This document shows, in pieces, positions 2,434-51,788 of a stretch of DNA of 64,000 nt. Each line of letters starts with the position of its first letter. Position 1 is the stretch's first letter. The DNA is from Candidatus Methylacidiphilales bacterium. Its GTDB lineage: Bacteria; Verrucomicrobiota; Verrucomicrobiia; Methylacidiphilales; Verrucolacustridaceae. A program made the position numbers and the translations under genes. The notes under the pieces were generated by a model. That model was not told the DNA's origin. It did no database searches and was given only the letters and a program-made list of their open reading frames with translations. The stretch is taken from positions 78,680 to 142,679 of the forward strand of contig JBBAWB010000005.1 in the NCBI GenBank assembly GCA_040397385.1, written 5' to 3'.

Positions 2434-3219
2434 ATGGAAGTTATTATTTTACCGACAGCCGCAGAAGCCAGCGAAGTGGCCGCCCGATTGGTAACCCGTC
2501 AGCTCAGAGAAAAGCCCAGCTCAGTCCTAGGCCTGGCAACGGGCAGCACCCCCTGCAATTTGTATCAACTGCTAGCCCGGATGCACCGGGAGGATGGACT
2601 CGATTTTAGTAAGGCGACCACCTTCAACCTAGACGAGTACGTCAACCTCAACCCCACCCATCCGGCTTCCTACCACCAGTTCATGGAGGAGAACTTCTTC
2701 TCCCATGTGAACCTCGTGCGTAAGAATATTCACATCCCCGACGGCATGGTTGCCGATGTGCCCGCGCACTGTGCTGAATATGAAAGAGCCATTCGTAAAG
2801 CCGGCGGGATTGACCTGCAGATCCTCGGACTCGGCTCAGACGGACACCTCGGTTTCAATGAACCTGGCTCTTCGCTGGCTTCCCGCACTCGAATCAAGAC
2901 CTTAACGGAACGCACCCGCAGCGATAACGCTCGGTTTTTTACGGGTGCTCAGGAGGTTCCGCACCACGTGATCACGATGGGTCTTGGCACCATCATGGAA
3001 AGCCGGATGTGCCTGCTCCTCGCCTTTGGAAAAGCCAAGGCAGAGGCCGTGGCGGCAAGTGTCGAAGGCCCGGTGACGGCCTCGGTGCCCGGATCACTGC
3101 TCCAGTTCCATCCCCAGGTAAAGGTGCTCCTTGATGCTGAGTCGGCGTCATCACTCACTCGCGCCGAATATTACCAAGGCGTCTATCAAAACAAACCATC
3201 ATGGCAAACCGACCTTTAA
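2434..3219 (+). CDS. nagB: glucosamine-6-phosphate deaminase
   Basis: 261 aa with canonical NagB blocks: 'LGLATGSTP', 'TFNLDEY', 'GIDLQILGLGSDGHLGFNEPGSS', 'VITMGLGTI'. Confidence 0.93.
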   Translation: MEVIILPTAAEASEVAARLVTRQLREKPSSVLGLATGSTPCNLYQLLARMHREDGLDFSKATTFNLDEYVNLNPTHPASYHQFMEENFFSHVNLVRKNIHIPDGMVADVPAHCAEYERAIRKAGGIDLQILGLGSDGHLGFNEPGSSLASRTRIKTLTERTRSDNARFFTGAQEVPHHVITMGLGTIMESRMCLLLAFGKAKAEAVAASVEGPVTASVPGSLLQFHPQVKVLLDAESASSLTRAEYYQGVYQNKPSWQTDL

Positions 3220-3371: not shown

Positions 3372-4127
3372 ATGAATCAACCGAAACCAGACTGGAAAGA
3401 ACAAGTCGCCGTGATCAGCGGCGGAGCGGACGGACTGGGTCTGGCCGTGGCCCGTCGCCTCTCCTTGCGCGGGGTTCGTCTAGTCCTGCTCGACCTCAAC
3501 GACGACGCCCTCGCCAAGGCCAAGCAGGAGCTTGGCCCGCGCACGCTGGCCCTTCGCGTGGACGTCACCGACCCGTCGGCTATGCGCAAAACTATTGATC
3601 AGGCCGCCGCCGAAACCGGTCGGTTGGATATTCTCATCAACTGCGCCGGCATCACCGGAAAAACAAATCTGAAGAGCCATGAGGTGGATCCTGCCGACTT
3701 CGACCGCGTCATGAAGGTCAACGTCAACGGCTGCCTCAACACTTTTCAGGCGGTCGTTCCCCACATGCTCAAGCGGAACTATGGCCGGGTGCTCCACTTT
3801 GCTTCGGTATCTGGCAAGGAGGGCAACGCCGGGATGCTCGCCTATTCCACTTCCAAGGCCGCCGTTATCGGTATGACCAAGGTGCAGGGCAAGGAGTACG
3901 CCCAAATGGGTATAACCGTGAATGCGCTGGCCCCGGCGGTCATCTTCACGGAGATGGTCGCGGCCCTGCCACCGGAACAGGTGAAATATATGACCGACAA
4001 GATCCCGATGGGCCGATGCGGCACCAAGGATGAAATCGCCGCCTTATGCGAATTCATCGTTTCGCCGGAAAACTCCTTCACCACTGCCTTCACCTACGAT
4101 TTGACCGGCGGACGCGCCACCTACTAA
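3372..4127 (+). CDS. short-chain dehydrogenase/reductase (candidate sugar or 2-keto-3-deoxy-sugar-acid dehydrogenase)
   Basis: 251 aa. Rossmann motif 'VISGGADGLGLAVARRL', 'NCAGI', and catalytic 'YSTSKAAV' (YxxxK). Confidence 0.9.
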   Translation: MNQPKPDWKEQVAVISGGADGLGLAVARRLSLRGVRLVLLDLNDDALAKAKQELGPRTLALRVDVTDPSAMRKTIDQAAAETGRLDILINCAGITGKTNLKSHEVDPADFDRVMKVNVNGCLNTFQAVVPHMLKRNYGRVLHFASVSGKEGNAGMLAYSTSKAAVIGMTKVQGKEYAQMGITVNALAPAVIFTEMVAALPPEQVKYMTDKIPMGRCGTKDEIAALCEFIVSPENSFTTAFTYDLTGGRATY

Positions 4128-4136
4128 GGAAAAACC

Positions 4137-4940
4137 ATGCACATCATCCGTTATCAGGACCCTCAAGAAAACATCCACTACGGCTCCCAGAATTCCCATG
4201 GTTCGGCCGTCCGCTGCACCGGCGATCTCTACGCCGGCCTGAAAGAAACCAAGGAGCCGGCCCGCATCGCCAAACTCCTGGCCCCGCTGGTCCCCTCGCA
4301 GATTCTCTGCATCGGGCTCAACTACCGCCACCATGCCGCGGAGTCGGGCATGAAGCCGCCGGAACGCCCCATCCTCTTCACTAAGGGCATCAACACGCTC
4401 CAGAACCCAGGCGATCCCATCGAGATTCCTGTCAAGGCCGCCAGCACCGAGGTCGACTACGAGTGCGAGCTTGCCGTGGTGATTGGCAAAGCGTGTAAGA
4501 ACGCCACTCCCGCAAACGCCCTTTCCCATGTGCTGGGTTATACCTGCGGAAATGATGTCTCCGCCCGCGACTGGCAGCTCAAGTGGGGCGGCGGGCAATG
4601 GTGCCGAGGAAAAACTTTCGACACCTTTTCCCCGCTGGGCCCCTGCCTCGTCACCGCCGACGAGATTCCCGACCCGCAAACCCTCGGTATTCGTACGATC
4701 CTGAACGGCGAGAAGGTTCAAGACTGGAACACGAATGATATGATCTTCAATGTGGCCGAGATCATCGCCTTCCTAAGCGGCAGCAACACCCTTCCGCCGG
4801 GCACGGTCATCCTGACCGGAACCCCGCACGGCGTCGGCATGGCCGCCAAACCGCCCCGCTGGTTAAAGGCAGGGGATCAAGTGACTATCGAGATCGACCG
4901 TATCGGCCAACTGACCAATCCCGTTGCCTTGGAGCGCTGA
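4137..4940 (+). CDS. fumarylacetoacetate hydrolase (FAH) family protein; candidate 2,4-diketo-3-deoxy-6-deoxyhexonate hydrolase
   Basis: 267 aa with FAH-family blocks 'ILCIGLNYRHHAAE', 'VDYECELAVVIGK', 'GYTCGNDVSARDWQ', 'GKTFDTFSPLGP', 'GTVILTGTPHGVG'. It starts 9 nt after the SDR stop. Confidence 0.88.
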   Translation: MHIIRYQDPQENIHYGSQNSHGSAVRCTGDLYAGLKETKEPARIAKLLAPLVPSQILCIGLNYRHHAAESGMKPPERPILFTKGINTLQNPGDPIEIPVKAASTEVDYECELAVVIGKACKNATPANALSHVLGYTCGNDVSARDWQLKWGGGQWCRGKTFDTFSPLGPCLVTADEIPDPQTLGIRTILNGEKVQDWNTNDMIFNVAEIIAFLSGSNTLPPGTVILTGTPHGVGMAAKPPRWLKAGDQVTIEIDRIGQLTNPVALER

Positions 4941-5018
4941 CCCGCCCTTTCCTTCTGCTTTCCCCGTGAACCTTGTTTTCGGCTACGGCAACTACCTTGG
5001 TGGTTGTTCGGCCGGACA

Positions 5019-5897
5019 TTAATCCATTTTATTTTTTGGTTGTTGTGGCTGATTGGAAAACGGGGCGTGGCGGAAGATACCGCCCGAATGCGGATGGGCT
5101 GCGAGCGCAGCCTCGGCTAGGCCTAGCCTTGATGTCGTGATGTAGAGGTGCCCTTCCCCAGAGAAGCAGCACGAGCTGGTGTGTGGGCAACCAGTATCCA
5201 CCCGCTGGAGGAGGAGGCCTGATTTCGGGCACCATTGGCAAACGCAGCCCGCGCCCCAGTGGGCGACCCAGAGTGTGTCGTCGCGTCCGACATCCATGCC
5301 ATCGGGAACCCCAAGGCCGTCGGGCACTCTGACCACAGTGCGCCAGTTGCGGATCGAAGAATCGGAGGAGTCGAAATCGAACGCCCAGATTTCCCGTGTC
5401 GGGGAATCGATGAAATACATCGTTTTGGAGTCGCGGGACCAACCCATGCCGTTGGAGATCGTGAGGTTGTCGAGCACGCGGGTGAGTTTGCCGCCGTCGA
5501 GCCGATAGAGTGACCCTGCGCCTTCGACGGAGCCGTCGTTCGACATCGTGCCGATCCAGAAGCGTCCGGACGGGTCTCGCTTGCCATCGTTGCAACGGTT
5601 CTCGGAGATCTCCGGCTCGACCTGGACGATTTCCCGGATGTCGCCGGTGGTCAGATCGACCGAGGCGAGACGCTTGGCAAAGGCGACGAGGTGGCGGCCA
5701 TTACCTGCGGGAACGACGACGCAAGGCAGTTCCTCGAACGGATGGCTGACGACACTGCCCCTGACGGGGTCGAAGCTGTTGATTTTGCAGCCCATCATGT
5801 CCACCCAGAGGAGGCGCTGTAGCTCGGCGTCCCAGCAGGGCCCTTCCCCGTGGGTGCTGCGGGTGTCGGCAACGAGGGTGGCGGTGGCGGTTTTCAT
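5019..5897 (-). CDS. SMP-30/gluconolactonase/LRE-like sugar lactonase
   Basis: 292 aa with 'GEGPCWD...LLWVD', 'NDGKRDPSGRFWIGTM' and 'SNGMGWS...MYFIDS', typical of the six-bladed propeller lactonases. A 12-nt gap separates it from the upstream dehydratase. Confidence 0.88.
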   Translation of the reverse strand: MKTATATLVADTRSTHGEGPCWDAELQRLLWVDMMGCKINSFDPVRGSVVSHPFEELPCVVVPAGNGRHLVAFAKRLASVDLTTGDIREIVQVEPEISENRCNDGKRDPSGRFWIGTMSNDGSVEGAGSLYRLDGGKLTRVLDNLTISNGMGWSRDSKTMYFIDSPTREIWAFDFDSSDSSIRNWRTVVRVPDGLGVPDGMDVGRDDTLWVAHWGAGCVCQWCPKSGLLLQRVDTGCPHTSSCCFSGEGHLYITTSRLGLAEAALAAHPHSGGIFRHAPFSNQPQQPKNKMD

Positions 5898-5909
5898 AAG
5901 AGTTCGGGC

Positions 5910-7088
5910 TTACCAGTCGGTGACCGCTCCGTCCGGCGTGAAACTGCGGCGCAGGATTTCCTGCTCGAACGGGTGCTTGCGCACCTCACCCTCGTTGATC
6001 TCGATGCCGAGTCCCGGCTTGTCGCTCGGGCGGACGATCTGGCCCTTCGGCTCGATGGTGAAGCCGGACCGGACGATGTCGTCGCGCCAAGGCACGTCGT
6101 TCTTGACGGATTCACAAATGAGATAGCTCGGCGTGGCGAAGCCAAACTCGAGCGAGGCCGCCGTGCTCACCGGCCCTTGCGGATTGTGCGGCGCAATGGA
6201 GACGCGATAGGCCTCGGCCAGCGCGGCGATGCGGCGCGCCTCGGTGAGCCCACCGCAATGGGTGATGTCGGGCTGGAGGATGCTGGCGGCGCGCTTTTGG
6301 AGGAGGTCGCGGAAGCCGTGGATGCCGGTGATACGTTCGCCGCTAGCAATGGGCGTGCCCACCGCGCGCTGGATGTCGGCCATGTCGTCGAGCACCTCGG
6401 GCCAGCAGACTTCCTCGAGAAAATAGAGGCCGTAGGGTTCCAGGGCGCGTGCAAACTGCATCCCCATGGCTGGTGAGGGGCGGGCGTGGCAGTCAACCAT
6501 CACGTCAATGTCCGGCCCCACAGCCTCGCGGATCGCCTCAACACAAGAGACAGCGTAATTGATTGGTCGGAGCCCCTCGATGGGCGCGGTCTCCGGAACA
6601 GCCATGCATTTGAAAGCGGTGTAGCCGTTTGCCACCGTCTCCTGCGCGAGCTCGGCGAAGCGTTTTGCATCGCCCGGCGCGGTGAGATAAAAATCCTCCA
6701 TTTTTCCTCCGCCGAGATGGCTGTAGGTCCGGATGTAGTCGCGCACCGGGCCACCCCACAGCCGATGACAGGGGACGTTGTGAACCTTGCCCATGATGTC
6801 CCAGAGCGCGAGGTCAATGCCCGCAATCGCCGTGGCGCGGACGATACCATTGCCGTGCCAGAAATGCTGGCGGAACATCATCTGCCAGAGGTGCTCCACG
6901 CGCGTGGGATCCTCGCCGATGATGAGTTGGGAAAGATCCTCGATGGCCCCGATCACTGAGCGCGTGTGCCATTCCAGCGTCGCCTCACCCCAACCGTAAA
7001 GCCCGGGCTGGTCGGTCAGGACTTTGACAAAGATCCAGTTTCGCATGCGGGCGTTGCAGATAAGCGTTTCGATTTTTGTGATTTTCAT
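5910..7088 (-). CDS. enolase-superfamily sugar-acid dehydratase (D-galactonate dehydratase-like)
   Basis: 392 aa. 'MKITKIETL...[22 protein letters not shown]' and '[14 protein letters not shown]...[10 protein letters not shown]' align by eye with E. coli DgoD along the full length. Confidence 0.9.
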
Positions 7089-7124
7089 AGTTGGTAAGAC
7101 GCCGAATGGGCAGGTTGGGTTTTG

Positions 7125-7934
7125 CTATTTGCCTACGATGGGTTTGGACGCATAGGGCTCGCGGCTGACGAGCAGGCTGGTCATTCCGAGGTCGGCAAAA
7201 ATGTTGGCCCCCGTGATGCACGACGAATCATCGCTCAGAAGAAAAATGCAACATTTGGCGACTTCTTCGGGAGTGATCAGGCGGTTACCCGGGATGTTGG
7301 CATTCCAGTAGTCGAGGCACTCCTTTTCGCTGGGTGCAGCAGCGATGTGGTCCTTCCAGATTTCAGTTTCGCAGAGGCCGGGGGAAAGGATGTTCACCCG
7401 GATGCCGAAAGGTGCGAGCTCCACGGCGGCGGCTTTGCTGAAGCCGACCATCCCGTGCTTGGCAGCGTCGTAAGGCGCGGCCCCGGCCACCGCAGCATGG
7501 GTGTGGACACTGGCGATCTGGACGATCGAGCCAACATGCCCGGCCTTATGCATTGTGCGCGCGCAAAGTTGGGTGAGTAGAAACGAACCGGTGAGATCGA
7601 CGTCGAGCACGCGCTGCCATTCGACCAGATTAATTTCGAGGAACGGCTTCACGTAGTCAACGCCCGCGTTGTTGATCAGCCCGTCGATGCGTCCGAACCG
7701 TTTGACCGAACGTTGGACGAGGGCCTCCAATTGCGACGGATTGCTCATGTCGGTCACAACAACCTCGGCCTCACCGCCCGTGGCGGCAATGCGGGTTGCG
7801 ACGGAATCGAGTTCCGGCTTCGAGCGGGCGGCCAGAACGACTTTCGCGCCTTCGCGGGAACAGGTTTCAGCCATGGAAACACCAAGGCCCTTGCTGGCTC
7901 CGGTGATGATGATGACTTTGTTTTGTAGTTTCAT
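7125..7934 (-). CDS. short-chain dehydrogenase/reductase
   Basis: I trimmed the track ORF (7125-8045) to the ATG giving 'MKLQNKVIIITGASKGLG'. That ATG overlaps the upstream stop as ATGA (7931-7934). It has 'NNAGV' and the catalytic 'YDAAKHGM'. Confidence 0.88.
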   Translation of the reverse strand: MKLQNKVIIITGASKGLGVSMAETCSREGAKVVLAARSKPELDSVATRIAATGGEAEVVVTDMSNPSQLEALVQRSVKRFGRIDGLINNAGVDYVKPFLEINLVEWQRVLDVDLTGSFLLTQLCARTMHKAGHVGSIVQIASVHTHAAVAGAAPYDAAKHGMVGFSKAAAVELAPFGIRVNILSPGLCETEIWKDHIAAAPSEKECLDYWNANIPGNRLITPEEVAKCCIFLLSDDSSCITGANIFADLGMTSLLVSREPYASKPIVGK

Positions 7935-8887
7935 AGGGAGGAGGTGTTGATCCATTGGTTTTTCCAGTCGGAGAATTCGCAGTCCGACAAAAGCATGAGC
8001 CGCGTGGTGGCGACTTCCGTAAAGCTTTGCGGTCCGATGCCGCAACGCAGCGCAGGCGAGCGGTGTTCGAGTTCGCCGAAGCCGCCAAAACTGCCATCGT
8101 CGCAGAAGAATTGGAGCGCATCGCCCTGGGTATCGAGGGCATGGAGCGGAGAGTCGCAGTAAAACAAATCCGGATAAACCGGAAAGAAACGCTCAAGGAC
8201 CAGTTGGCCGCCCGGCACTGGCCGTGCGTAGGCGACGCGCCCGGCCGAGTGCGCGGCAGAGATGCCAAGTTTGAACATCGATGAGCAGCGGATTTGGATC
8301 TCCGTGTAAGTCGGGCACACCGAGAATTCGCTGGCGGGAGTGGGGCTGAAGTAATCGCGCGGCACCGCGTGACCGACGCTCGGAATCAGCAGGCTGCCGC
8401 CGGGGCGGATTTGGATCAGCGACCAGAAGTCCACCGGCTGGCCGGGCGTGCCATCGAGAATCTCCATGCCAGTGCAAGTGCGCAGACCAATGCCTGATCT
8501 GGGCGCGCCAAGATTCTCCACCGACAGCAATTCGACGGAGCGCGCCAAGCGGACTTTCACATTCGCGTCCCGGTGCGCCGAGTTAACGGTTATGTCCACC
8601 GAGCCCGCAAAGAATCCGTCGCGTGATTGATCGACCGTCCAGATGTCCAGGTCGAGAGCGGGCGGCACTTTGTAATGGGCGAAGTCCAGCTTGTCGAGAC
8701 TCTGCCAGTGCCAGTCGGCCTCGGGACCAATCCAGAGGCGCTCGCCCCCAAGATTCCACGAGGCGGTCCCTTCCGGTGGCGACCAGAGGGATTGGTATCC
8801 GGCGACCTCGATGCCGAGCACGCGTCCGCGTTCGGGAAGCACGCGAATGCTGCCGACTTCTGTTTTCCAATTAATGGGAGTGTCCAT
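7931..8887 (-). CDS. conserved hypothetical, possibly galactose-mutarotase-like (DUF4380-like)
   Basis: First gene of the minus-strand operon. I trimmed it to the ATG at 8887 ('MDTPINWKTEV'). The motif 'NLGGERLWIGPEADW' resembles the GG-x-R-x-W-x-x-PE block I associate with DUF4380/aldose-epimerase-like proteins. The coding call is strong; the function call is weak. Confidence 0.6.
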   Translation of the reverse strand: MDTPINWKTEVGSIRVLPERGRVLGIEVAGYQSLWSPPEGTASWNLGGERLWIGPEADWHWQSLDKLDFAHYKVPPALDLDIWTVDQSRDGFFAGSVDITVNSAHRDANVKVRLARSVELLSVENLGAPRSGIGLRTCTGMEILDGTPGQPVDFWSLIQIRPGGSLLIPSVGHAVPRDYFSPTPASEFSVCPTYTEIQIRCSSMFKLGISAAHSAGRVAYARPVPGGQLVLERFFPVYPDLFYCDSPLHALDTQGDALQFFCDDGSFGGFGELEHRSPALRCGIGPQSFTEVATTRLMLLSDCEFSDWKNQWINTSSL

Positions 8888-9166
8888 AAGTTTGATCAAA
8901 TCGTGGCAATGGATTTTATACCACAACAGAAGCCATCCATTCGTCTCCGGTGAGTCTCGTGCCGAGTGCGAGGGAAAAATACGTGGCCTCGCCGTCGGGA
9001 TCGGCGAACTCCGTAAAATACAATGGGCCTCGGGTGCAAACGCAGCGAGCAAAGTAGACCTCGGTTTGTGCCAGCCAGAGATGGCCTTAGCGCCAGATCA
9101 TTGGCGTGTGATTTACGGGACGAATGCACAATGCATCCCCCATTTCGACCAGTCATAAAACCAACT

Positions 9167-9180
9167 ACTCATACGTATGA
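9167..9180. promoter_or_regulatory. perfect 14-bp palindrome with central CG (candidate LacI-family operator)
   Basis: CTCATACGTATGAG is exactly self-complementary. It lies in the divergent intergenic region between the 8887 operon start and the lacI-family ATG at 9209. Confidence 0.35.
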
Positions 9181-9208
9181 GATTGACGTATTGAACCGTG
9201 ATTACAAG

Positions 9209-10216
9209 ATGCTTTCCATGCACGATTTGTCGGCTCCGACCCAAAAGCAAATGGCGACGCGCCTCGGGGTCTCGCAGTCGCTGGTTTCTCGCGCTCTTTC
9301 GGGGCGTGCCAGAGAAATCGGGGCATCTCGGGAGACGGTTGAAATGATCCGCCGCACGGCCGTGAAATGGAACTATCAGCCGAGCGCAACGGCACTCGCC
9401 TTGCTTGGTGCGCCGACGCGCACAATCGGCGTCGTGGTGAAACATTTTGATGACCCCTATTTCGGGCGACTCATTGGTGCGTTACAGATCCTGGCCTGTG
9501 AGAACGGCAACTCTCTTCTGCTCACCGGAGGCACCCAGGCGGATCTCGCCGGGCTACAAAAGCACCGGGTGGACGGCGTGATTTTGGCTGGCAGCGATTT
9601 CCAGCCGGAGGGCCTGCGGAGCTTTGCGCACGGAGGACTACCAGTGGTTCAGATCGGAACGGGTTCTTCTTTTTCGGGAACCATGCAGATTCACATGGAT
9701 GAAGAGGCGGGCATCGAAGAACTGGTAGGATATCTCGCGAGTTTAGGACATCGGGACATCGGGTTTGTCGCGGGGAGGACGGGATCGAACAGACGTCGTG
9801 GCGAAATCGTGCGGCGCAGACTGCGGGCACGAGGATTTTCCGTTAGACCCAAAGCGTTTATTTTTTCGGAGGGATCCGATGGTGAGGTTGCTGAACATGC
9901 GGTCGATGCGCTTCTCGGCTTGGGCCGGATGCCGACGGCAATGATTGCCGCGGAAGATTCCTTGGCGATCGCACTCCTGTGCTACCTTTACAAAAAAGGG
10001 ATTAGCGTACCGCGGGAGATTTCTATTGCAGGCATCGACGATATCGCTGTATCTGCGCATGCCACCCCTCCGCTTACGACGCTCCGACAACCCATTCCCG
10101 AAATGGCAGCTACTGCCTTTCGTGCACTCACTTTATCCGGCGGAAAAAGGAGGCCCGTGTCGGTCCCCGGGACCCTGATACTCCGCGATTCGTGCGCTCC
10201 ACTTGCTTCGCTCTAA
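9209..10216 (+). CDS. LacI-family transcriptional regulator
   Basis: I trimmed it to the ATG at 9209. The N-terminal HTH is '[22 protein letters not shown]', followed by a periplasmic-binding-protein-like sugar-sensor core ('IGVVV..FDDPYF', 'VDGVILAG', 'ISIAGIDD'). Confidence 0.9.
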
Positions 10217-10236
10217 CACAATCCACAAACTCCATA

Positions 10237-10971
10237 ATGAAAATCACCATTGCAAAAACAAAACAGGAGTCAGGTGCCGCGGCGGCTGTGCTCGGCGCAA
10301 AACTCATCCGGGAAGCACTCCGCAAGAACGGAAAGGCCAACATCATCGTGGCCACCGGCGCATCGCAATTTGAAACAATCGGAAAGCTCGTGAGAGAACA
10401 GCGGATCGACTGGACGCGCGTCACAGCCTTTCATCTGGACGAGTACGTCGGAACGCCGATCACGCATCCCGCTTCGTTTCGGAAATATCTTTGGGAACGC
10501 TTTGTCAGCCAGCTTCCGCTCCCTCTCGCGGCATTCCATTACATCAATGGTGAAGGCGATGCCCAGGCCGAATGCCAACGCGTCAACGCGATCATTGCGA
10601 AGCATCCGATTGATGTTTGTTTCGCCGGGATTGGCGAGAACGGACATCTGGCCTTCAACGATCCGCCCGCCGATTTTAAAACTCATGCTCCCTATCTAGT
10701 TGTCCAACTCGATCAGGCATGTCGTCGCCAACAAATGGGTGAAGGCTGGTTTAAAACGTTGGCCCAGGTGCCACGTCGGGCCATCTCAATGTCCATCCAA
10801 CAAATCCTGAAATCAAAAGCCATCATCTGCACAGTGCCGGATCGGCGTAAAGCCAAGGCTGTGCGGGATTGCCTGCAGGGACAAATCTCCCCCCTTCACC
10901 CCTCCTCCATCTTACAAAAGCATCCTGCCACTTGGTGCTTTCTCGACCGAGCCTCCGCCTCCCTGCTCTAG
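10237..10971 (+). CDS. NagB/6-phosphogluconolactonase-family sugar-phosphate deaminase/isomerase (divergent second paralog)
   Basis: I trimmed it to '[11 protein letters not shown]'. Blocks: 'IIVATGASQ', 'AFHLDEYVG', '[19 protein letters not shown]'. It is clearly the same fold as nagB at 2434 but divergent. It starts 21 nt after the lacI-family stop. Confidence 0.85.
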
Positions 10972-10984
10972 GAGCTTTCTTTCG

Positions 10985-12232
10985 ATGACGCTTGAAAGAT
11001 TTTCCCTCGGACTGGGCGACCGCTTTGGAAAACAAGGCGTAGCCCAACTCGCCGCCCTGCAACAAGCCGCCTCCAAGGGCTTTGCCATCACCCCCGTTTG
11101 GAATAAATCCAACCGGGAACACAGTCTGATTGGCACTGGACCCGCCGATACCCAGCTGGCCGCTCAAAAGGCGGTGCAAACCGCGGGATGGACTCGCCCT
11201 TATCACCTCGATGCAGACCACATTGGCCTCAAGACAGTGGACCGCTTCCTACCCCACTGCGATTTTTACACGATCGACGTTGCCGATTTTATCCGGCAAC
11301 CAGCAACTCCCGAGGATACGAATGCCGTGCGAACCTACCTTCAGTCCATCGTGGGCCGAAAAATTCCTGAATTGGGGAAGACAGAAGCGATCCGCCAGAG
11401 TGAGATCGATACTTTCCTTTCGGTTTACGCCTCCGCCATTCGCGAGGCTGGCCGTATCTACCTCCACATCGCCAAAGCCAAAGGAGAAGAGAACTTCATC
11501 GCGGAAGTTTCCACAGATGAAGCGGAGACTCCTCAATCTCCCTTCGATCTTTACCTCATTCTCGGAGCCCTTGCCGGAGAAGGCGTACGCCTTCAAACTA
11601 TCGCCCCAAAATTCAGCGGGCACTTTAATAAAGGAGTGGATTACGTGGGAAATGTTAATCAATTCACCCGCGAATTTGCGCAGGACCTCACCGCGATCCG
11701 CATGGGCGTGACCGACTTCGGCTTGCCCTCCAATCTAAAAATCAGCGTGCACTCTGGAAGCGATAAGTTCTCGCTCTACCGCCCAATCCATACCCTTTTG
11801 GCCAAGCACGACGCGGGTCTCCATTTAAAAACGGCGGGGACCACCTGGCTGGAGGAGTTGATTGGTCTCTCTTTAGCGGGCGGGGATGGCCTTTCCGTGG
11901 CCCGGGAAATTTACAGCAAAGCTTTGGCTCGAATCGATGAACTCAGCCAACCCTATGCGACGGTCATCGATATCGATCGCTCGAAACTCCCCCAGCCAGC
12001 AGAGGTCAAACAATGGGATGGCCAAACTTTCGCCGACACCCTTGCCCATGATTCATCCCAACCGCGATTTAACCCCTCTTTCCGCCAACTTCTTCACGTC
12101 AGCTTTAAGGTTGCCGCCGAAATGGGAGACCGTTACCAGAACGCCTTGGATCAGGCTCAGGCCAAGATTTCGGCCTGCGTCACCACCAATCTTTTTCAGC
12201 GACATATCCAACCCCTGTTTTTTGGGCAATGA
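10985..12232 (+). CDS. UxaE-family (tagaturonate/fructuronate epimerase-like) sugar epimerase
   Basis: 415 aa. The blocks 'YHLDADHIG', 'EVSTDEAETPQSP', 'KISVHSGSDKFSLY', 'HLKTAGTTWLEE' and 'RQLLHVSF' match the conserved blocks I recall from Thermotoga UxaE (ADADHV / EVSVDETETPTSP / ISLHSGSDKFSVY / HVKTAGTSYLEA / RQLIHVTYG). Confidence 0.8.
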   Translation: MTLERFSLGLGDRFGKQGVAQLAALQQAASKGFAITPVWNKSNREHSLIGTGPADTQLAAQKAVQTAGWTRPYHLDADHIGLKTVDRFLPHCDFYTIDVADFIRQPATPEDTNAVRTYLQSIVGRKIPELGKTEAIRQSEIDTFLSVYASAIREAGRIYLHIAKAKGEENFIAEVSTDEAETPQSPFDLYLILGALAGEGVRLQTIAPKFSGHFNKGVDYVGNVNQFTREFAQDLTAIRMGVTDFGLPSNLKISVHSGSDKFSLYRPIHTLLAKHDAGLHLKTAGTTWLEELIGLSLAGGDGLSVAREIYSKALARIDELSQPYATVIDIDRSKLPQPAEVKQWDGQTFADTLAHDSSQPRFNPSFRQLLHVSFKVAAEMGDRYQNALDQAQAKISACVTTNLFQRHIQPLFFGQ

Positions 12233-13158
12233 AATCCTGTCTTTTTGATATTCAGGTCAATGGGTTTGCGGGGGTCGACTTTCAGCAGCCGGGCTTGACC
12301 GCCACGGATCTTACTCGTGCGGTCGAGGGGCTGGCCTCCCACGAAACCCAGCGTTTTTTTCTTACCCTAATCACAGACTCCATCCCCTCTTTATGCAGTA
12401 AGTTGGAAAATTTTGAATCCATCCGAGCCAAGAACCCGATCCTTTCCGCAGCGATCTGCGGCTATCACATTGAGGGCCCATGGCTTTCTCCAGAACCTGG
12501 ATATAGCGGTGCCCATGATCCCCGCTTCATGGGTCCTCCTAATTTGGCAGATTTGGAACGACTTCAGAAGGCAGCTCATGGCCACATCAAGCTCATCACC
12601 TTGGCGCCAGAGTGGCCAAAAAGCGCCTCCTTCATCCAGCTGGCTCGTGCGCAAGGCATCCATATCTCTTTGGGACACACCAACGCATCGGAAAATGATA
12701 TCGATGTAGCAATCTCCGCTGGCGCACTTTTTTGCACCCACCTGGGAAACGGTACTCCCGCAGATCTGCCGAAACACGACAACATCATCCAGCGCCTGCT
12801 CTGTCGGGATGAATTGACCGCTTTTTTTATTCCCGACGGTATTCATATTCGGCCCGCAACCTTGAAGAGTTATTTCCGAGCCAAACCCCACGGCCAAGCC
12901 TTGTTCACCACCGACTGCATGGCGGCAGCAGGAGCTCCTCCTGGTCGCTTTCGTATTGCCCACCACGAAGTGGAAGTAGGCCCAGATCGGGTTGTCCGCT
13001 CTCCCATTACGGGCACCTTGGCAGGGTCTGCCCTAGCCCCAGACGAGGGAGTCAGGAACATCTGCCGCTGGGTTGGACTAGACGAAACCGAGGCGCGACG
13101 CCTGTTCTCGACTTCCATTTCCGCTGCCTTCAACGTCGTTCTTCCGACCCTAAAATGA
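12229..13158 (+). CDS. N-acetylhexosamine-6-phosphate deacetylase family (NagA/AgaA-like), short form
   Basis: 309 aa with 'DIQVNGFAGVDF', 'GYHIEGPW', 'ISLGHTNAS', 'CTHLGNG', 'IPDGIHI', 'LFTTDCMAAAG'. It lacks the usual ~50-aa N-terminal beta-sandwich. Its ATG overlaps the uxaE-like stop (ATGA). Confidence 0.8.
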   Translation: MKSCLFDIQVNGFAGVDFQQPGLTATDLTRAVEGLASHETQRFFLTLITDSIPSLCSKLENFESIRAKNPILSAAICGYHIEGPWLSPEPGYSGAHDPRFMGPPNLADLERLQKAAHGHIKLITLAPEWPKSASFIQLARAQGIHISLGHTNASENDIDVAISAGALFCTHLGNGTPADLPKHDNIIQRLLCRDELTAFFIPDGIHIRPATLKSYFRAKPHGQALFTTDCMAAAGAPPGRFRIAHHEVEVGPDRVVRSPITGTLAGSALAPDEGVRNICRWVGLDETEARRLFSTSISAAFNVVLPTLK

Positions 13159-13249
13159 CGACGGAAATTCTTCGGCCCAGATTAGGAGTTCACATTGGAT
13201 TCTAGGCTGCTGCCGGGAGCAGGGATATTTGAGATGTAAAAATGCACCC

Positions 13250-14002
13250 ATGAAAAAGAAAACATGTCTTGTTACGGGTGGGGGAACGGGAATCGGCCGT
13301 GCGGTAGCGCAGCGGTTCTCTGAAGAAGGTGCCGAAGTGTGGGTGGTTGGCCGATCGCAGAAAACCCTGGACGAGACCGTGTCGATTATCGGCGACCGTT
13401 GCATCTCACGGGTCTGTGATGTTACCGATGCCGCAGGACTTGAGGATATCATCGAATCGATGCCCGCGCTGGACGTGCTGGTGAGCAACGCGGCGGTCAG
13501 CTTTGCCATTGCCCCGCTTGAGGATCCCATCGAGCAGTGGCGCAAGATGATCGAGGTGAACATGTGGGGGACGGTCAATGCCTGCCGAGCCGCCGGGAGG
13601 AGAATGATCCGTGACGGCCGAGGTGGGCGGATTGTCATTGTCAGCTCGGTCCACCACCAGCTTGCCGAACCGGGCAACACGCCCTACGGAATGGCGAAGG
13701 CGGCCATCAACCAGCTGGCCCGGGGTCTGGCCTGTGAATGGGCGGCCCATGGAATTCTTGTGAATGTTGTCGCGCCCGGATTTGTGCTGACCCCGATGAG
13801 TTTTGCCTCGGGTGTGAATGAACTCGAAAGCGACTGGTGCAAGCTGTTCTTCTTCAATCCGGATGGCCCACGGGTTCCATTGCTTAGGGCGGGCAAGCCG
13901 GAGGAGATCGCCGAGGCGGTTCTGTTCTTTGCCAATCCGCGCAACACCTATTGCACCGGCAGCACTCTCACGGTGGATGGAGGGCTAAGCATTAAGTTCT
14001 GA
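13250..14002 (+). CDS. short-chain dehydrogenase/reductase
   Basis: I trimmed it to 'MKKKTCLVTGGGTGIGRAVA'. It has 'SNAAV' and the catalytic 'YGMAKAAI'. Confidence 0.88.
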   Translation: MKKKTCLVTGGGTGIGRAVAQRFSEEGAEVWVVGRSQKTLDETVSIIGDRCISRVCDVTDAAGLEDIIESMPALDVLVSNAAVSFAIAPLEDPIEQWRKMIEVNMWGTVNACRAAGRRMIRDGRGGRIVIVSSVHHQLAEPGNTPYGMAKAAINQLARGLACEWAAHGILVNVVAPGFVLTPMSFASGVNELESDWCKLFFFNPDGPRVPLLRAGKPEEIAEAVLFFANPRNTYCTGSTLTVDGGLSIKF

Positions 14003-14107
14003 ACTCTTCAGGCCTTGGCTTCTATGCCGGCAAGATGGGAATGCTCCTCTTGCCTGAATGACCGGGCTGCTAACCAAAATGAGAATAATTCAAACCAATC
14101 AACAACT

Positions 14108-15286
14108 ATGAAAATTGAGTGTGTGGATCTTTTTTACCTTTCGATGCCCGAGGTGCTAAACATCGGCGACGGTAGCCAGGACGCCCTGCTTGTACGCGTC
14201 GAGGCCGGTGGACTTGTCGGATGGGGGGAGTGCGAAACCTCGCCGCTGACCTCAATCGCATCGGCGGTGGCCCCAATGTCGCACAGCGCCTGTAAGCCTG
14301 TTCTTGCTTCGGTGCTTGGCGAAGCCCTCGACGGCCCGTCTGATATTGCACGCATCGGTGACCTGGTGCGGGCCAACAGCTTCGACCAGCTCCAGATGGA
14401 CCACACCCTCTCTGGAATCGACATCGCACTTTGGGACTTGATGGGAAAAAAGCTCGGAGAGCCCGCCTGGCGGCTGGTCGGTTATGATGAATCCTACCGC
14501 AAACGGCCTTATGCCTCGGTGCTCTTCGGAGATTCCCCGGCGGAAACCCACGCCAAGGTTGCTCGCATCCGGCAAGCCGGGTTTTCGGCGGTGAAGCTGG
14601 GATGGGGACCGTTTGGGCGGAGTGCGGCCAAGGACGACGCCACGCAGGTGCATGCGGCACGCGAGGCCCTGGGGGCAGATGGCATCCTCCTTATTGATGC
14701 GGGCACGGTTTTTTCAGAAAATTTGACACGTGCCTCTGAGAGGCTCCCGGCTTTGTCGAAAGCAAAGGTCCATTGGTTCGAGGAGCCCTTTCACAACTAC
14801 GCTCTGGATGCTTATGGAGAGTTGGCCAAAACTTCTCCGCGAGTCCCCCTTGCCGGCGGGGAGGGCTCGCACAACGCCCATCAGGCTGTGCAGATGATGC
14901 GGCAAGGCGGGGTCAGATTCATCCAGGTGGACACGGGCCGCATCGGAGGCATTAGCTCCGCCAAGCAGGTGGCCGATCAGGCTGTCGTGCTCGGAGTGAC
15001 CTATGTGAACCATACATTTACCTCAGGGCTGGCGCTGGCCGCCTCTCTTGTTCCCTTCGCCGGCCTCGAAAATCATGTCATTTGCGAATACCCGGTCGAA
15101 CCGAAACCCCTGGCAAGCGAACTGGCCGGAAATCCTTTTCCTCTCGATAGTGATGGCATGATCTCTATCAGCGATGCCCCGGGCCTGGGCGTGGAAGTCG
15201 ATGTGGCCGCGCTGCAGAAATACCTGGTTCCCGTTGAAATCCGCGTCGGAGGCAAGTTGATTTACGAGACCCCCAAACTGAGATGA
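14108..15286 (+). CDS. enolase-superfamily (mandelate racemase/muconate lactonizing) enzyme, probable acid-sugar dehydratase
   Basis: I trimmed it to 'MKIECVDLFYLSMP'. It has 'GWGECE', 'SGIDIALWDLMGKKLGEP', 'LLIDAG', 'WFEEP' and 'FIQVDTGRIGGIS'. Confidence 0.88.
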   Translation: MKIECVDLFYLSMPEVLNIGDGSQDALLVRVEAGGLVGWGECETSPLTSIASAVAPMSHSACKPVLASVLGEALDGPSDIARIGDLVRANSFDQLQMDHTLSGIDIALWDLMGKKLGEPAWRLVGYDESYRKRPYASVLFGDSPAETHAKVARIRQAGFSAVKLGWGPFGRSAAKDDATQVHAAREALGADGILLIDAGTVFSENLTRASERLPALSKAKVHWFEEPFHNYALDAYGELAKTSPRVPLAGGEGSHNAHQAVQMMRQGGVRFIQVDTGRIGGISSAKQVADQAVVLGVTYVNHTFTSGLALAASLVPFAGLENHVICEYPVEPKPLASELAGNPFPLDSDGMISISDAPGLGVEVDVAALQKYLVPVEIRVGGKLIYETPKLR

Positions 15287-15290
15287 GCTG

Positions 15291-16067
15291 ATGCAAAAAA
15301 CCGTTTTAGCTATTGGGGCGCATCCCGACGATATCGAGTTCCTCTATTCCGGCACCCTTCTCCTTCTGAAGCAGCGGGGATGGGCAATTCACATGTGGAA
15401 TCTTGCCGATGGAAGCGCCGGATCCAAGACGCTGTCCTCCGGGGTGATCGCAGCCAAACGCTGGGAAGAATCTCTGGCTTCGGCCCGGATTCTAGGAGCC
15501 ACTCTGCATCCACCGATTTTCAAGGATCTCGGCATCTTTTACGATGCCCCCTCGTTGGCCCTAGTTTCCTCCGCGGTGCGAGCCATCGATCCCTCGATCA
15601 TCCTGACGCATCCTCCCTCCGACTATATGGCGGACCATGAGAACACTTGCCGTTTAGTTGTGACTGCTGCGATAGCCAAAGGGATCCCAAACTATCCGGT
15701 TGTTCCGCCCCACGAGGCGAAAGACGGCCCAGTGGCATTGTATCATGCCCCGCCATTAGGCTGTCGGACGGGTTTGAATGAACCTGTCATCCCGAGACTG
15801 TTTGTGGACATCGGCTCCGTGTTGCAGGACAAAGTCCGGATGCTGCTGGCTCATGAAAGCCAAATGGAATGGCTCCGGCAAACGCAGACGATGACCAGCT
15901 TGGAAGATGTTGTGCTTACCGAGTCGAGAAATGTTGGGAAACTGAGCGGTGTGTTCCAGTGCGCGGAGGCCTTCACGCCCCACGATAACCGTGGCTACTG
16001 CCCGGGAAACTTCAAGCCGTTGGAGGAGGCTCTCGGCGCGAATGCTTTTTGCAAGCCACGGCCATGA
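15291..16067 (+). CDS. PIG-L/LmbE-family N-acetylsugar deacetylase
   Basis: 258 aa. The N-terminal 'VLAIGAHPDDIEF' and later 'HPPSDYMADHENT' are the metal-binding motifs of this family. Confidence 0.85.
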   Translation: MQKTVLAIGAHPDDIEFLYSGTLLLLKQRGWAIHMWNLADGSAGSKTLSSGVIAAKRWEESLASARILGATLHPPIFKDLGIFYDAPSLALVSSAVRAIDPSIILTHPPSDYMADHENTCRLVVTAAIAKGIPNYPVVPPHEAKDGPVALYHAPPLGCRTGLNEPVIPRLFVDIGSVLQDKVRMLLAHESQMEWLRQTQTMTSLEDVVLTESRNVGKLSGVFQCAEAFTPHDNRGYCPGNFKPLEEALGANAFCKPRP

Positions 16068-16187: not shown

Positions 16188-17570
16188 CTAACGGCGCGAT
16201 TCCCTATGAAACCGGACATAGAGTATTCCGCTAAATACCAAAGCCAACCCGTAGCAAAACGCCGGTAGAAGCAAAGATAGCCGGTAGTTATTGCCGGAAA
16301 CATCGATCAACTTTCCACCGATCGGACTGATGATCGCGGCTCCCAAAGCGCCGACAATCGCGCCCGCAGAAGCAAATTGCCCGTATTGCGCCCTCGGATA
16401 CATGTCCACCGTCCACTTGCCCAAAGCAAGAAAGATCAGGAATCCGGGAATACTGAGGAGAAATCCGAGAAGGAATGCGGTGGTCCGATCCTGAATGAAG
16501 AAAAAGCACATCAAGAACAAAACGATTCCACTCGCCAAACCGATCATCAGCGCTTTTTGGCTGTCCAGCCGGTCGATTAAAGCGCCAAAAGGCGCCGAAA
16601 GCAGAAGGTTTGCCCCAAGGGTAAATGTTGTCAGGCGCCCGAACTCCTCTTCACTCAGGCCGATCTGGTCGCGATAGAAAAAAAGATAAAACACTCCGAT
16701 CGCACTGCCCCATTGAATCGAGCCGTAGACCAGAAATATCAGCCAGTTTCTGGAACTTCCAAAGCACCGAATAAAATAATTTCTTACTGGCGAGAACCAC
16801 TCGCCTTTTTCCTCAATCACCTCGGGGTATCCACCTTCCTTTACTTTCAGACACATAAAAACAAACGAAATGCCGTAAAGAGCCGCGAAGATCGCAAAGA
16901 GCAAACGCATATGCTGGTGTGCATATCCAAAAATGAACCAATTAAAAACAATTCCCGCCAGAATTCCGAAAACACGAAACCATCCATAGAACCGGCCGAT
17001 GAATGGCTCGGGCACCGTATCGGGAATCAAATAGTAATAGATGGTGCTGATGAACATGTTGAAAATCTGGAAAGCGAGAATCAATAGGCCGAAAACGAAA
17101 ACCAGTGGAGCGAATGGAAGGATCTCGAGAGCGGCCCGGACCGGAGCGAACTTTTGCAATGCGGAGCAAATCTGCGGCGACCAGGGAATAAGAATCAGAA
17201 AGATAACGACGAACGGTGTCGCAAACAACAGGAAGGGCCGCCTACGCCCCCATCTGCCGCGGTAGCGATCCGAATAACTGCTGATGACAGGATTTAGTGC
17301 AATGTTGCAGAGCTGAAAGATTGTGGTGGTGAGGACGGCAATTGCCTGATTGCTCATTCCGTGGTCCTTCATTTGCATGTTCAGCAGCGAAGGCATGGAT
17401 TCCATCAGGGAAAAGGTAAAATCGCCCCAAAGCAACCAGGCAAACAGCGTGATCAGGCCTGCGGGCGTATAGTGGAGAGTTCCACAAGTATATTTCTCCC
17501 TCTGACTGCCGGATGCCTCCTCATTTTTGCGCATCCACCAGCTCTTTAACTTAATGCTCAATGCATTCAT
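16188..17570 (-). CDS. MFS-type sugar transporter (glycoside-pentoside-hexuronide-like)
   Basis: 460 aa and about 12 hydrophobic helices. The loop 'SDRYRGRWGRRRPF' after TM2 is the typical MFS/GPH signature. Confidence 0.85.
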   Translation of the reverse strand: MNALSIKLKSWWMRKNEEASGSQREKYTCGTLHYTPAGLITLFAWLLWGDFTFSLMESMPSLLNMQMKDHGMSNQAIAVLTTTIFQLCNIALNPVISSYSDRYRGRWGRRRPFLLFATPFVVIFLILIPWSPQICSALQKFAPVRAALEILPFAPLVFVFGLLILAFQIFNMFISTIYYYLIPDTVPEPFIGRFYGWFRVFGILAGIVFNWFIFGYAHQHMRLLFAIFAALYGISFVFMCLKVKEGGYPEVIEEKGEWFSPVRNYFIRCFGSSRNWLIFLVYGSIQWGSAIGVFYLFFYRDQIGLSEEEFGRLTTFTLGANLLLSAPFGALIDRLDSQKALMIGLASGIVLFLMCFFFIQDRTTAFLLGFLLSIPGFLIFLALGKWTVDMYPRAQYGQFASAGAIVGALGAAIISPIGGKLIDVSGNNYRLSLLLPAFCYGLALVFSGILYVRFHRESRR

Positions 17571-24490: not shown

Positions 24491-24552
24491 AGCATCTTTG
24501 CTGAGTTTAGCTGGGTTTCCCGTCGGAGCGGGGGTGAGTTTGGATTGAGGTT

Positions 24553-25170: not shown

Positions 25171-25337
25171 ATTCGGATTTCTTTCTGATTTGATGGTTAA
25201 ATTAAACTTTGGTGCTCCTTAATTCACTGTGCACTCCGTTGGGCCTGGCAAAAAGAAACATCTCTTGCATTTTCTCGCAGATTTTTGTTTTTTCAAGCAG
25301 GCGGAGGCAAGGCATAGAAACGCGCAGACTTCGTCAG

Positions 25338-51775: not shown

Positions 51776-51788
51776 AACCCCGTATACC

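Follow-up and report, generated by a model that had tools for sequence, protein, structure and literature searches.

In the 64,000-nt stretch of Candidatus Methylacidiphilales bacterium DNA analysed here (contig JBBAWB010000005.1; hereafter the window, to which all coordinates refer), we interpret positions 9168–16067 as an operon under LacI control that would serve to break down a 2-acetamido-2-deoxy-hexuronic acid, most likely N-acetylgalactosaminuronic acid (GalNAcA). On sequence evidence we give this reading a probability of about 0.6. The core of the operon is a cassette encoding a NagB-like deaminase, a UxaE-family epimerase and a NagA-like deacetylase. With the same confidence, GalNAcA would be deacetylated, deaminated to D-tagaturonate, epimerised to D-fructuronate and directed on towards 2-keto-3-deoxygluconate (KDG). 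The broader idea of a new N-acetyl-hexosaminuronic acid pathway, in which NagA and NagB paralogues act on non-phosphorylated, C6-carboxylated amino sugars and replace uronate isomerase, we hold at slightly better than even odds. Its being widespread in freshwater and soil Verrucomicrobiota, with GalNAcA and possibly the gluco and manno counterparts (GlcNAcA, ManNAcA) as substrates, is likewise favoured by a narrow margin. The elements of the core locus are the following:

9168 to 9181, no strand: candidate LacI operator, a perfect 14-bp palindrome (CTCATACGTATGAG) about 30 nt upstream of the likely LacI start
9209 to 10216, plus strand: transcriptional regulator of the LacI family, opening the unit (PF13377, PF00532; RbsR, PurR and GalR models matched below their cutoffs)
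10237 to 10971, plus strand: NagB-like aldose-amine deaminase/isomerase, C-type (PF01182, E = 1e-18)
10985 to 12232, plus strand: UxaE-family epimerase, 415 aa (PF16257, E = 1e-51)
12229 to 13158, plus strand: barrel-only NagA-like amidohydrolase, 309 aa (TIGR00221, model positions 56–341 of 380, 165 bits)

A recurrent cassette with an exchangeable slot

The four genes follow one another on the plus strand from 9209 to 13158. The LacI reading frame, whose likely start is the ATG at 9209, ends at 10216, and the NagB-like gene (244 aa) runs from the ATG at 10237 to a TAG ending at 10971. A spacer of 13 nt (10972–10984) with GGAG inside it separates this gene from the UxaE-family gene, which extends from the ATG at 10985 to a TGA ending at 12232 and shares the ATGA at 12229–12232 with the start of the NagA-like gene. 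This layout, with lacI upstream, the 13-nt gap and the 4-nt overlap, is the one described in the initial annotation, whose three family assignments are also backed by Pfam and NCBIfam.

The locus was compared with a set of about 170 related loci, among them 80 from a scan of metagenomes with the NagA-like protein as query; overall, the barrel-only NagA-like gene occurs in 92 loci. The order NagB-like, UxaE, NagA-like recurs in many contigs, with proteins 60–96% identical to those of the window, and therefore is not a chance juxtaposition. The closest relatives belong to uncultured Verrucomicrobiota labelled Methylacidiphilales and Terrimicrobiaceae, and the cassette recurs in freshwater Verrucomicrobiota.

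Two operon types can be distinguished. The C-type, to which the window belongs, has the order (LacI)–NagB-like–[insert]–NagA-like, with NagB-like proteins 71–84% identical to that of the window, whether the cassette carries UxaE, UxaA/UxaB or neither. The slot between the two Nag-like genes is empty in about 16 loci and holds UxaE in 21; a UxaA-type dehydratase together with UxaB (Mannitol_dh family) is found there in L094/L099/L105 and L173/L174, while L172 holds UxaA, UxaB and UxaE together. The UxaB of L094 exceeds the curated NCBIfam cutoff for tagaturonate reductase (504 vs 359 bits), and the insert UxaB genes form three lineages (66%, 80% and >90% identical). In several lineages the inserted reading frames overlap or nearly abut the flanking genes, and orthologous cassettes with differing inserts share 66–71% identity in LacI, 83–84% in the NagB-like and 68–73% in the NagA-like protein. 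The substrates of UxaB and UxaA-type enzymes are tagaturonate and altronate as free acids, and sugar phosphates are not among them. Every enzyme found in the slot uses D-tagaturonate or, for the UxaA-type dehydratase, the product of UxaB.

UxaC, the usual producer of tagaturonate, adjoins 27 of the 78 ordinary UxaE genes, whereas not one of the 22 cassette loci has it as a neighbour (Fisher p = 0.0007, or p = 0.015 if about 12 independent lineages are counted); GH28 adjacency follows the same pattern. Since the slot enzymes use tagaturonate and UxaC is never there, the deacetylase and the deaminase would do the job of UxaC on the amino analogue of its substrate. Indeed, NagB chemistry, the conversion of an aldose amine to a 2-ketose, would give exactly the UxaC product if carried out on a sugar with a C6 carboxylate.

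Regulation seems to be independent of the insert. LacI orthologues (48–71% identical) precede the cassette in at least 15 loci, and the motif CTCAT-N4-ATGAG lies 45–75 nt upstream of LacI in LacI-bearing cassettes irrespective of what the slot contains (L001, L004, L092, L094, L095, L096, L110, L143, L157, L159, L172 and L173); these cassettes hold UxaE, UxaA/UxaB, both, or neither. The same operator across different inserts argues for one regulon type responding to one effector. In the window the 14-bp palindrome is present as a single copy, with no further operator besides 9168–9181 that would define a larger regulon.

The insert behaves as a mobile module, as indicated by two loci (L101 and L102) with 99.6% identity along 5.97 kb, as far as the NagB-like gene extends, and with different sequences beyond it: L102 continues with UxaE and NagA-like genes, whereas L101 is devoid of UxaE and its NagA-like allele matches that of L102 at only 84% in DNA sequence, a recent swap of the module. 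L140 has a glutamate dehydrogenase gene between its NagA-like and UxaE genes (8943–11501), which fits with the release of ammonia. In another lineage (L083, 9220–13504), the NagB-like and UxaE genes are followed by a bifunctional rhamnulose-1-phosphate aldolase/short-chain dehydrogenase of the RhaEW type, over its curated cutoff, and the NagA-like gene is missing.

The G-type operon has the order NagA-like–NagB-like, with NagB-like proteins 36–50% identical to that of the window. It usually continues with two GFO/IDH/MocA oxidoreductases, a xylose-isomerase-like barrel and a PIG-L gene, with GH20, GH4, HGSNAT-like and major facilitator superfamily (MFS) genes in the vicinity. UxaE, UxaA and UxaB are absent from the G-type loci, one of which (L129) has UxaC and a KdgK-like gene. 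Operons of this second conserved type in L170 (9001–12710) and L171 (9001–14326) consist of barrel-only NagA-like and NagB-like genes (the latter 46–47% identical), two GFO/IDH/MocA genes, an AP_endonuc_2 gene and PIG-L, with no kinase, and resemble 3-keto-glycoside routes.

The epimerase has an ordinary UxaE core

The window protein is a genuine member of the UxaE family. It matches PF16257 with 176 bits (cutoff 27), it is related to the solved structures 6IL9, 6ILA and 9LHU in phmmer searches (E = 1e-21 to 1e-26), and a Foldseek search with its predicted structure gives a template-modelling (TM) score of 0.80 to its closest solved structures, 9LHW and 6IL9, which are UxaEs of Cohnella and a Thermotogota. 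On the other hand, the TM score to the GatZ-type 2FIQ is 0.47 with 12–14% identity, and no Pfam or NCBIfam match besides UxaE places the protein in the GatZ/KbaZ family. It is a short form, devoid of about 90 N-terminal and 60 C-terminal residues of the solved UxaEs. The catalytic acid/base pair of the Cohnella enzyme, Glu126 and Asp159 (PMC11194214), corresponds in the alignment to its residues E45 (within SNRE) and D78 (within DADH), both of which are invariant in 98 of 98 family members.

An exact-sequence look-up of the window protein returned no match, so that its genomic context was drawn from homologues, using a scan with one genome per species that returned 80 loci. Homologues 52–57% identical to the window protein occur in Acidobacteriota, Planctomycetota, Bacteroidota and Verrucomicrobiota, where they adjoin UxaC (24–27 loci) and GH28 polygalacturonase genes (17–19 loci), and also PfkB kinases, gluconate-kinase-like proteins, 6PGD, LarA-like epimerases and short-chain dehydrogenases. 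By gene context they are the ordinary tagaturonate epimerases of pectin and hexuronate catabolism, and none of them has a NagA-like or NagB-like gene beside it. The possibility that the whole family of 415-aa UxaE proteins is tied to NagA and NagB was therefore rejected. The enzymes embedded between NagB-like and NagA-like genes form a separate clade (about 73% identity inside, at most 59% to the others), to which the window protein belongs.

The cassette clade and the UxaC/GH28-linked clade have 100 near-invariant positions in common, including E45 and D78, and differ consistently at only three, all conservative: F115V, T180A and L253I. Placed on the predicted secondary structure, position 115 falls in a helix within the insert that separates strands 4 and 5, position 180 in the loop past strand 5, adjoining the invariant D178-E179, and position 253 in strand 7. 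Sharing of so many positions and divergence at so few gives no sign of a remodelled active site, and we propose that the window protein is a D-tagaturonate/D-fructuronate epimerase. The L140 enzyme carries the ordinary F115 and T180, from which it follows that the association of UxaE with NagA-like and NagB-like proteins arose at least twice.

The two Nag-like proteins

NagA enzymes consist of a TIM barrel and a small beta-sandwich built from the N- and C-termini. The NagA-like protein of the window scores below the curated cutoffs (165 vs 225.65 bits for TIGR00221, 113 vs 483 for NF008371) and has no Pfam match at the thresholds used. Its AlphaFold model (pLDDT 88) superposes on the NagA barrel only, with TM scores to solved NagA barrels of 0.83–0.85 (query) and 0.68 (target), so that the beta-sandwich must be missing; together with the restriction of the TIGR00221 match to model positions 56–341, this bears out the earlier remark that the N-terminal sandwich is lacking. 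The absence is a family trait, shared by proteins of about 309 aa in 86 loci and by thousands of database entries. Engineered removal of the beta-sandwich from the mycobacterial NagA yielded an insoluble protein (PMC6016474), in contrast to which the barrel-alone family is natural and widespread.

Nine residues are invariant in the family. Q9, N11, E82, H96, H150, H171 and D229 correspond to catalytic or metal residues of NagA, while N174 and H183, the latter preceded by Arg in at least 90% of the members and by Lys in the window (position 182), correspond to its contacts with the C6 anion. The residue roles are those of E. coli NagA and of PMC6016474, according to which NagA requires an anionic group at C6, sulfate can substitute for phosphate, and the mycobacterial enzyme accepts N-acetylglucosamine (GlcNAc) 6-sulfate. 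The loop at 173–182, aligned with the one that holds the C6-anion contacts in NagA, is the only low-confidence segment of the model. C-type and G-type NagA-like proteins have a single conserved difference. We propose, from these sequence features, that the window protein is an N-acetylgalactosaminuronate deacetylase.

The deaminase has a paralogue in the same window:

2434 to 3219, plus strand: canonical nagB, outside the system (TIGR00502, 293 bits vs cutoff 237; Arg172 present)

The two proteins are 30% identical, and the NagB-like protein reaches 136 bits with TIGR00502, under the cutoff of 236.9; it is thus indeed the divergent paralogue of nagB that the initial annotation had taken it to be. 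Because a canonical nagB is already in the genome, the paralogue is free for another substrate. Aligned with E. coli NagB, it retains the equivalents of Asp72, His143 and Lys208 and appears to have lost that of Arg172, which is replaced by Gln or Gly, depending on the alignment, in 15 of 15 NagB-like sequences. We take Asp72 and His143 to be catalytic and Arg172 and Lys208 to be phosphate ligands in the E. coli enzyme; in the reference sequence used, the numbering of Asp72, Asp141, His143, Glu148 and Lys208 came out correct. C-type and G-type NagB-like proteins show 21 conserved differences, including residues 41–42 and 168–171, which align with E. coli NagB 41–44 and with the segment around Arg172. 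The proposed activity is that of a 2-amino-2-deoxy-galacturonate deaminase yielding D-tagaturonate and ammonia.

Neighbouring genes point to an N-acetylated sugar

Five further genes may belong to the system:

13250 to 14002, plus strand: short-chain dehydrogenase (SDR; PF13561, PF00106), 91 nt downstream of the NagA-like gene
14108 to 15286, plus strand: enolase-superfamily acid-sugar dehydratase (PF13378, PF02746)
15291 to 16067, plus strand: PIG-L/LmbE-family N-deacetylase (PF02585), last gene of the same-strand run
16188 to 17570, minus strand: sugar transporter, MFS or glycoside-pentoside-hexuronide (GPH)-like, convergent with the operon (PF07690, PF13347)
27843 to 30119, minus strand: DUF4838 protein with a GH163/GH185-type hexosaminidase domain (PF16126), 15 kb from the operon

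Between 13158 and 13250 no terminator-like site was found, and the SDR is a candidate fructuronate (keto-acid) reductase; an SDR 79% identical to it is linked to UxaE and NagA-like genes in L149/L150, in another gene order. An enolase-superfamily gene, 35% identical to that of the window, likewise adjoins UxaE and NagA-like genes in L149/L150. The best solved relative of the window's enolase-superfamily protein is 2HZG (485 bits), which has no assigned function, and its matches to the gluconate, galactonate, arabinonate and mannonate dehydratase models are weak; its placement in the mannonate dehydratase (ManD) subgroup is accordingly not supported. The PIG-L protein, which among solved structures comes nearest to an LmbE-related protein, BshB and diacetylchitobiose deacetylases, also has counterparts in L111, L145, L149 and L171.

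In a set of 98 neighbour proteins drawn from 17 cassette loci, MFS, DUF4838, PIG-L, SDR and GDSL are the families that recur, PIG-L being one of the top three. The transporter at 16188–17570 has a faint match to the GPH symporters, and its family occurs in 10 cassette loci. Nine cassette loci carry a DUF4838 gene, and not one of the 78 ordinary UxaE loci does (Fisher p = 7e-5); relatives of the window protein occur in L086, L088, L091, L092, L095, L117 and L140. DUF4838 is a GH20-like domain with substrate-assisted catalysis, present in GH163 and in GH185, whose founding member is specific for 6-sulfo-GlcNAc, a GlcNAc with an anionic C6 group (PMC10570127). The window protein is a candidate for the release of the N-acetylated sugar, plausibly a 6-carboxylated N-acetylhexosamine (HexNAc). 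As recurrent neighbours, DUF4838, PIG-L, GDSL esterase and the MFS transporter point to an N-acetylated sugar as the substrate.

No HexNAc kinase, phosphotransferase system (PTS), AgaS, LacC or KbaY gene is recurrent near the roughly 45 cassette loci, and neither a sugar kinase nor an Aga-pathway gene is among the 25 most frequent neighbour families of the 17 loci. In the window itself, no N-acetylgalactosamine (GalNAc) kinase or PTS, AgaS, tagatose-6-phosphate kinase or tagatose-bisphosphate aldolase is near the cassette, and lacC and kbaY are absent. The expectation that neither kinase nor aldolase goes with the cassette thus holds for the loci surveyed.

The proposed pathway and its weight

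All steps of the pathway were deduced from sequence and gene context. A glycan or oligosaccharide would be processed by the DUF4838-type hexosaminidase and/or the PIG-L deacetylase, and its products imported by the MFS/GPH transporter. The barrel-only NagA-like protein would then remove the N-acetyl group, the C6 carboxylate being held by the Asn and Arg-His residues that contact phosphate in NagA. Ring opening, isomerisation and deamination of the resulting 2-amino-2-deoxy-galacturonate by the NagB-like enzyme would yield ammonia and D-tagaturonate, the same ketose that UxaC makes from galacturonate. From here, the UxaE-family enzyme would produce fructuronate, whereas in the sister cassettes UxaB and UxaA would lead from tagaturonate via altronate to KDG. 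Fructuronate would go on to KDG by a reduction and a dehydration, for which the SDR and the enolase-superfamily dehydratase are possible enzymes, and KDG would enter a KDG kinase/2-keto-3-deoxy-6-phosphogluconate (KDPG) aldolase route encoded elsewhere. The NagA-like/NagB-like pair would thus substitute for UxaC as the entry of amino-uronic acids into the hexuronate pathway.

Several points weigh against this pathway. To our knowledge, no member of the NagA or NagB families acts on a non-phosphorylated substrate, and in the NagA-like protein, Arg-His and Asn would hold a phosphate just as they would a carboxylate. The G-type NagB-like proteins, which possibly use another substrate, are devoid of Arg172 too, so that the argument from its apparent loss is weaker than it looks at first. 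Many cassettes carry neither UxaE nor UxaA/UxaB, and the metagenomic contigs are not independent, as many of them come from the same lakes. Downstream, the enolase-superfamily protein is probably outside the ManD subgroup, and the window contains no UxuA/UxuB, KDG kinase or KDPG aldolase gene. Finally, UxaE is reversible, which makes GlcNAcA and ManNAcA possible substrates of the window cassette as well: it could serve these sugars in the direction from fructuronate to tagaturonate, or GalNAcA in the direction from tagaturonate to fructuronate. The galacto configuration is favoured by the existence of cassettes with UxaB/UxaA and without UxaE.

Alternative readings

The alternative that survives best, improbable as we consider it, is a mosaic operon, in which an ordinary HexNAc-6-phosphate deacetylase and deaminase stand next to the galacturonate-branch UxaE or UxaA/UxaB and no intermediate is common to the two. 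Their co-transcription would merely reflect a natural glycan holding both HexNAc and galacturonate, an explanation that we find just as improbable. The core of the window UxaE, which is that of an ordinary tagaturonate epimerase, is compatible with this idea, and so are the distant NagA-like/NagB-like pairs with GH20, HGSNAT-like and GFO/IDH/MocA genes typical of HexNAc use, the many cassettes devoid of any tagaturonate enzyme and the variable presence of UxaE between strains 99.6% identical upstream. However, a galacturonate branch needs UxaC, which is never found in the cassette (0/22 vs 27/78), and no GH28 or other pectin-related gene accompanies it. Furthermore, three tagaturonate-using enzymes are inserted precisely between the NagB-like and NagA-like genes in several lineages, no HexNAc kinase is nearby, and the genome already has its canonical nagB.

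The initial annotation had proposed a different chemistry for the cassette, namely that GalNAc-6-phosphate is converted to tagatose-6-phosphate and then, by a natural UxaE-family 4-epimerase, to fructose-6-phosphate, so that GalNAc would enter glycolysis without tagatose-6-phosphate kinase and aldolase. Its gene order and coupling are confirmed, LacC and KbaY are missing from the window, UxaE and the GatZ-type epimerases share a class II aldolase-like barrel (TM 0.47 to 2FIQ), the substitutions F115V and T180A shrink side chains and could make room for a 6-phosphate, and the anion-binding residues of the NagA-like protein are retained. Nevertheless, we deem this chemistry very unlikely. In three cassette lineages, tagaturonate reductase and the UxaA-type dehydratase stand in place of UxaE or alongside it; the core of the cassette UxaE hardly departs from that of the UxaC/GH28-linked enzymes; the NagB-like protein has apparently lost Arg172; and neither a kinase nor a PTS is recurrent near the cassette loci. 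Its premise that UxaE members have served as tagatose-6-phosphate/fructose-6-phosphate 4-epimerases was also imprecise, because in the literature consulted UxaE enzymes were used on free fructose and tagatose, not on the 6-phosphates, and the known 6-phosphate epimerases belong to the GatZ/class II aldolase group. What remains of the proposal is the cooperation of the three genes, with the epimerase most likely acting on the ketose released by the deaminase; the tagato-to-fructo epimerisation after deamination probably survives, at the level of uronates.

The same annotation had pointed to a PfkB gene at 50963–51775 as the tagatose-6-phosphate kinase of a possible canonical pair. On the minus strand, this gene overlaps the end of a class I (FbaB-type) fructose-bisphosphate (FBP) aldolase gene (50963–52871 for both). 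The kinase matches hexose kinase and 1-phosphofructokinase models weakly, while the aldolase (51789–52871) is a class I FBP aldolase with 640 bits against a cutoff of 327. A LacC/LacD-type tagatose-6-phosphate pair was therefore rejected, and with such a partner the PfkB kinase is more likely to be glycolytic.

It is also conceivable, at still longer odds, that no amino sugar is involved and that one of the Nag-like proteins is a UxaC-independent galacturonate/tagaturonate isomerase of an alternative galacturonate pathway. The NagB fold does catalyse aldose-ketose isomerisation, UxaC belongs like NagA to the amidohydrolase superfamily, both Nag-like proteins score under the curated NagA and NagB cutoffs, and UxaC is absent from all cassettes even though tagaturonate enzymes are present. 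Against this, the NagA-like protein retains the full set of catalytic residues of the deacetylase and the NagB-like protein keeps Asp72 and His143; DUF4838, whose mechanism needs a 2-acetamido group, PIG-L and the glutamate dehydrogenase of L140 indicate an N-acetylated, nitrogen-releasing substrate; and a single isomerisation would not need two proteins.

Least credible of all is a route for 6-O-sulfated HexNAc (GalNAc-6-sulfate or GlcNAc-6-sulfate) released by the DUF4838 enzyme and processed via tagatose-6-sulfate or fructose-6-sulfate, with sulfate in the role of phosphate: the GH185 founder is a 6-sulfo-GlcNAcase, mycobacterial NagA takes GlcNAc-6-sulfate, the NagB-like protein, with one cationic ligand fewer, would suit a group of single charge and in L084 a related UxaE gene is followed by three sulfatase genes, but UxaA-type dehydratases need a carboxylate, UxaB counts as tagaturonate reductase by its curated model, sulfatase and sulfo-sugar genes do not recur in the cassette loci and L084 has neither a NagA-like nor a NagB-like gene.

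Other features of the window

The minus-strand run at 20223–31783, which includes the DUF4838 gene, encodes large proteins that match no family (866, 574 and 789 aa), a DUF642/carbohydrate-binding protein, an N-terminal-methylation/DUF1559 protein and a PEP-CTERM protein, with a divergent AraC regulator at 31887; it is probably a secreted glycan-degrading apparatus. Upstream of the operon, a cluster at 3372–8045 contains an SDR (3372–4127) and an FAA-hydrolase-family gene (4137–4940), and an SMP-30-type lactonase (5019–5897), an enolase-superfamily dehydratase (5910–7088) and a second SDR (7125–8045) on the minus strand; a DUF6786 gene (7931–9052, minus strand) adjoins it. The cluster resembles a non-phosphorylative pathway of the L-fucose/L-galactose type. 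Near 36 kb the GC skew of the plus strand falls abruptly from close to 0 to roughly −0.3, and over the rest of the window it remains negative regardless of gene strand, which may mark a replication-related strand switch or the boundary of a compositional domain. Finally, a 1873-aa open reading frame at 36957–42578 with repeated ABC-ATPase, UvrA interaction and DNA-binding domains looks like a duplicated, UvrA-like protein.

Significance and comparison with known systems

GalNAcA, GlcNAcA and ManNAcA are common in bacterial capsules, O-antigens and teichuronic acids. We found no catabolic route for hexosaminuronates in the literature searched; the parts of the cassette are known families, and their combination is not described there. 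If GalNAcA is indeed degraded as proposed, a missing entry point of amino-uronic acids into central metabolism would be filled, and NagA and NagB, at present annotated wholesale as GlcNAc-6-phosphate enzymes, would acquire new substrate classes; thousands of the 309-aa NagA-like proteins are named in this way or as "hypothetical". The NagA-like protein would be a natural soluble NagA without the beta-sandwich domain. The pathway would also partly explain how abundant lake Verrucomicrobiota recycle the carbon and nitrogen of bacterial and algal exopolysaccharides. The chemistry of the initial annotation would instead have provided a natural UxaE-family tagatose-6-phosphate epimerase of biotechnological interest, which the evidence makes unlikely.

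Among the systems to be compared, the Luteolibacter pathway for L-glucose and L-galactose also runs via tagaturonate; it does not explain the cassette, as its epimerase LguG belongs to the IolO family and not to UxaE. A closer parallel is the use of the aldonic acid of N-acetylglucosamine (GlcNAc1A), which proceeds to KDG with a pyridoxal-phosphate-dependent deaminase and a deacetylase of another family. According to PMC12017989, the deacetylase OngB initiates GlcNAc1A catabolism in oxidative chitin degradation. Both routes would have in common the deacetylation of a carboxylated N-acetyl amino sugar without prior phosphorylation. Unlike GlcNAc1A, with its carboxylate at C1, the substrate of the cassette would be carboxylated at C6 and keep its aldehyde, which allows NagB-type chemistry.

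In the catabolism of GalNAc, the steps after deacetylation and deamination proceed via LacC/AgaZ and KbaY. A 2025 review of amino-sugar metabolism has GalNAc degraded only by the kinase/aldolase route. The cassette shares with NagA–NagB and AgaA–AgaS/AgaI the succession of N-deacetylation and aldose-amine to ketose deamination, the protein superfamilies and the conserved catalytic residues. It differs in having two proteins below the curated cutoffs, the NagA-like one without beta-sandwich and the NagB-like one apparently without Arg172, in the absence of kinase, PTS, AgaS, LacC and KbaY, and in its partner genes, which are those of uronate metabolism.

A D-tagatose-6-phosphate 4-epimerase of the GatZ/KbaZ type from Agrobacterium tumefaciens is cited in PMC11907403. 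Like the GatZ/KbaZ proteins, the window epimerase has a metal-dependent class II aldolase-like TIM barrel and would invert C4 of a 2-ketohexose derivative by a retro-aldol/aldol reaction; unlike them, it belongs to the UxaE family and lies in a tagaturonate gene context, and the structural kinship is remote.

Finally, the isomerase (Ashwell-type) routes of hexuronate degradation lead to KDG either through UxaC, UxaE and UxuB/UxuA or through UxaC and UxaB/UxaA. The UxaE shunt operates in Thermotoga maritima. It is also described for Lactobacillus suebicus (PMC6978723). The window UxaE is shorter (415 aa) than the solved enzymes. The cassette has the D-tagaturonate node in common with these routes, with UxaE here, UxaB and the UxaA-type dehydratase in the sister cassettes and KDG as the expected end. 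On the other hand, it is devoid of UxaC, and its NagA-like and NagB-like proteins are proposed to make tagaturonate from an N-acetylated amino-uronic acid. If this is correct, the cassette represents a non-orthologous replacement of UxaC by a deacetylase and a deaminase, downstream of which UxaE alternates with UxaB/UxaA.

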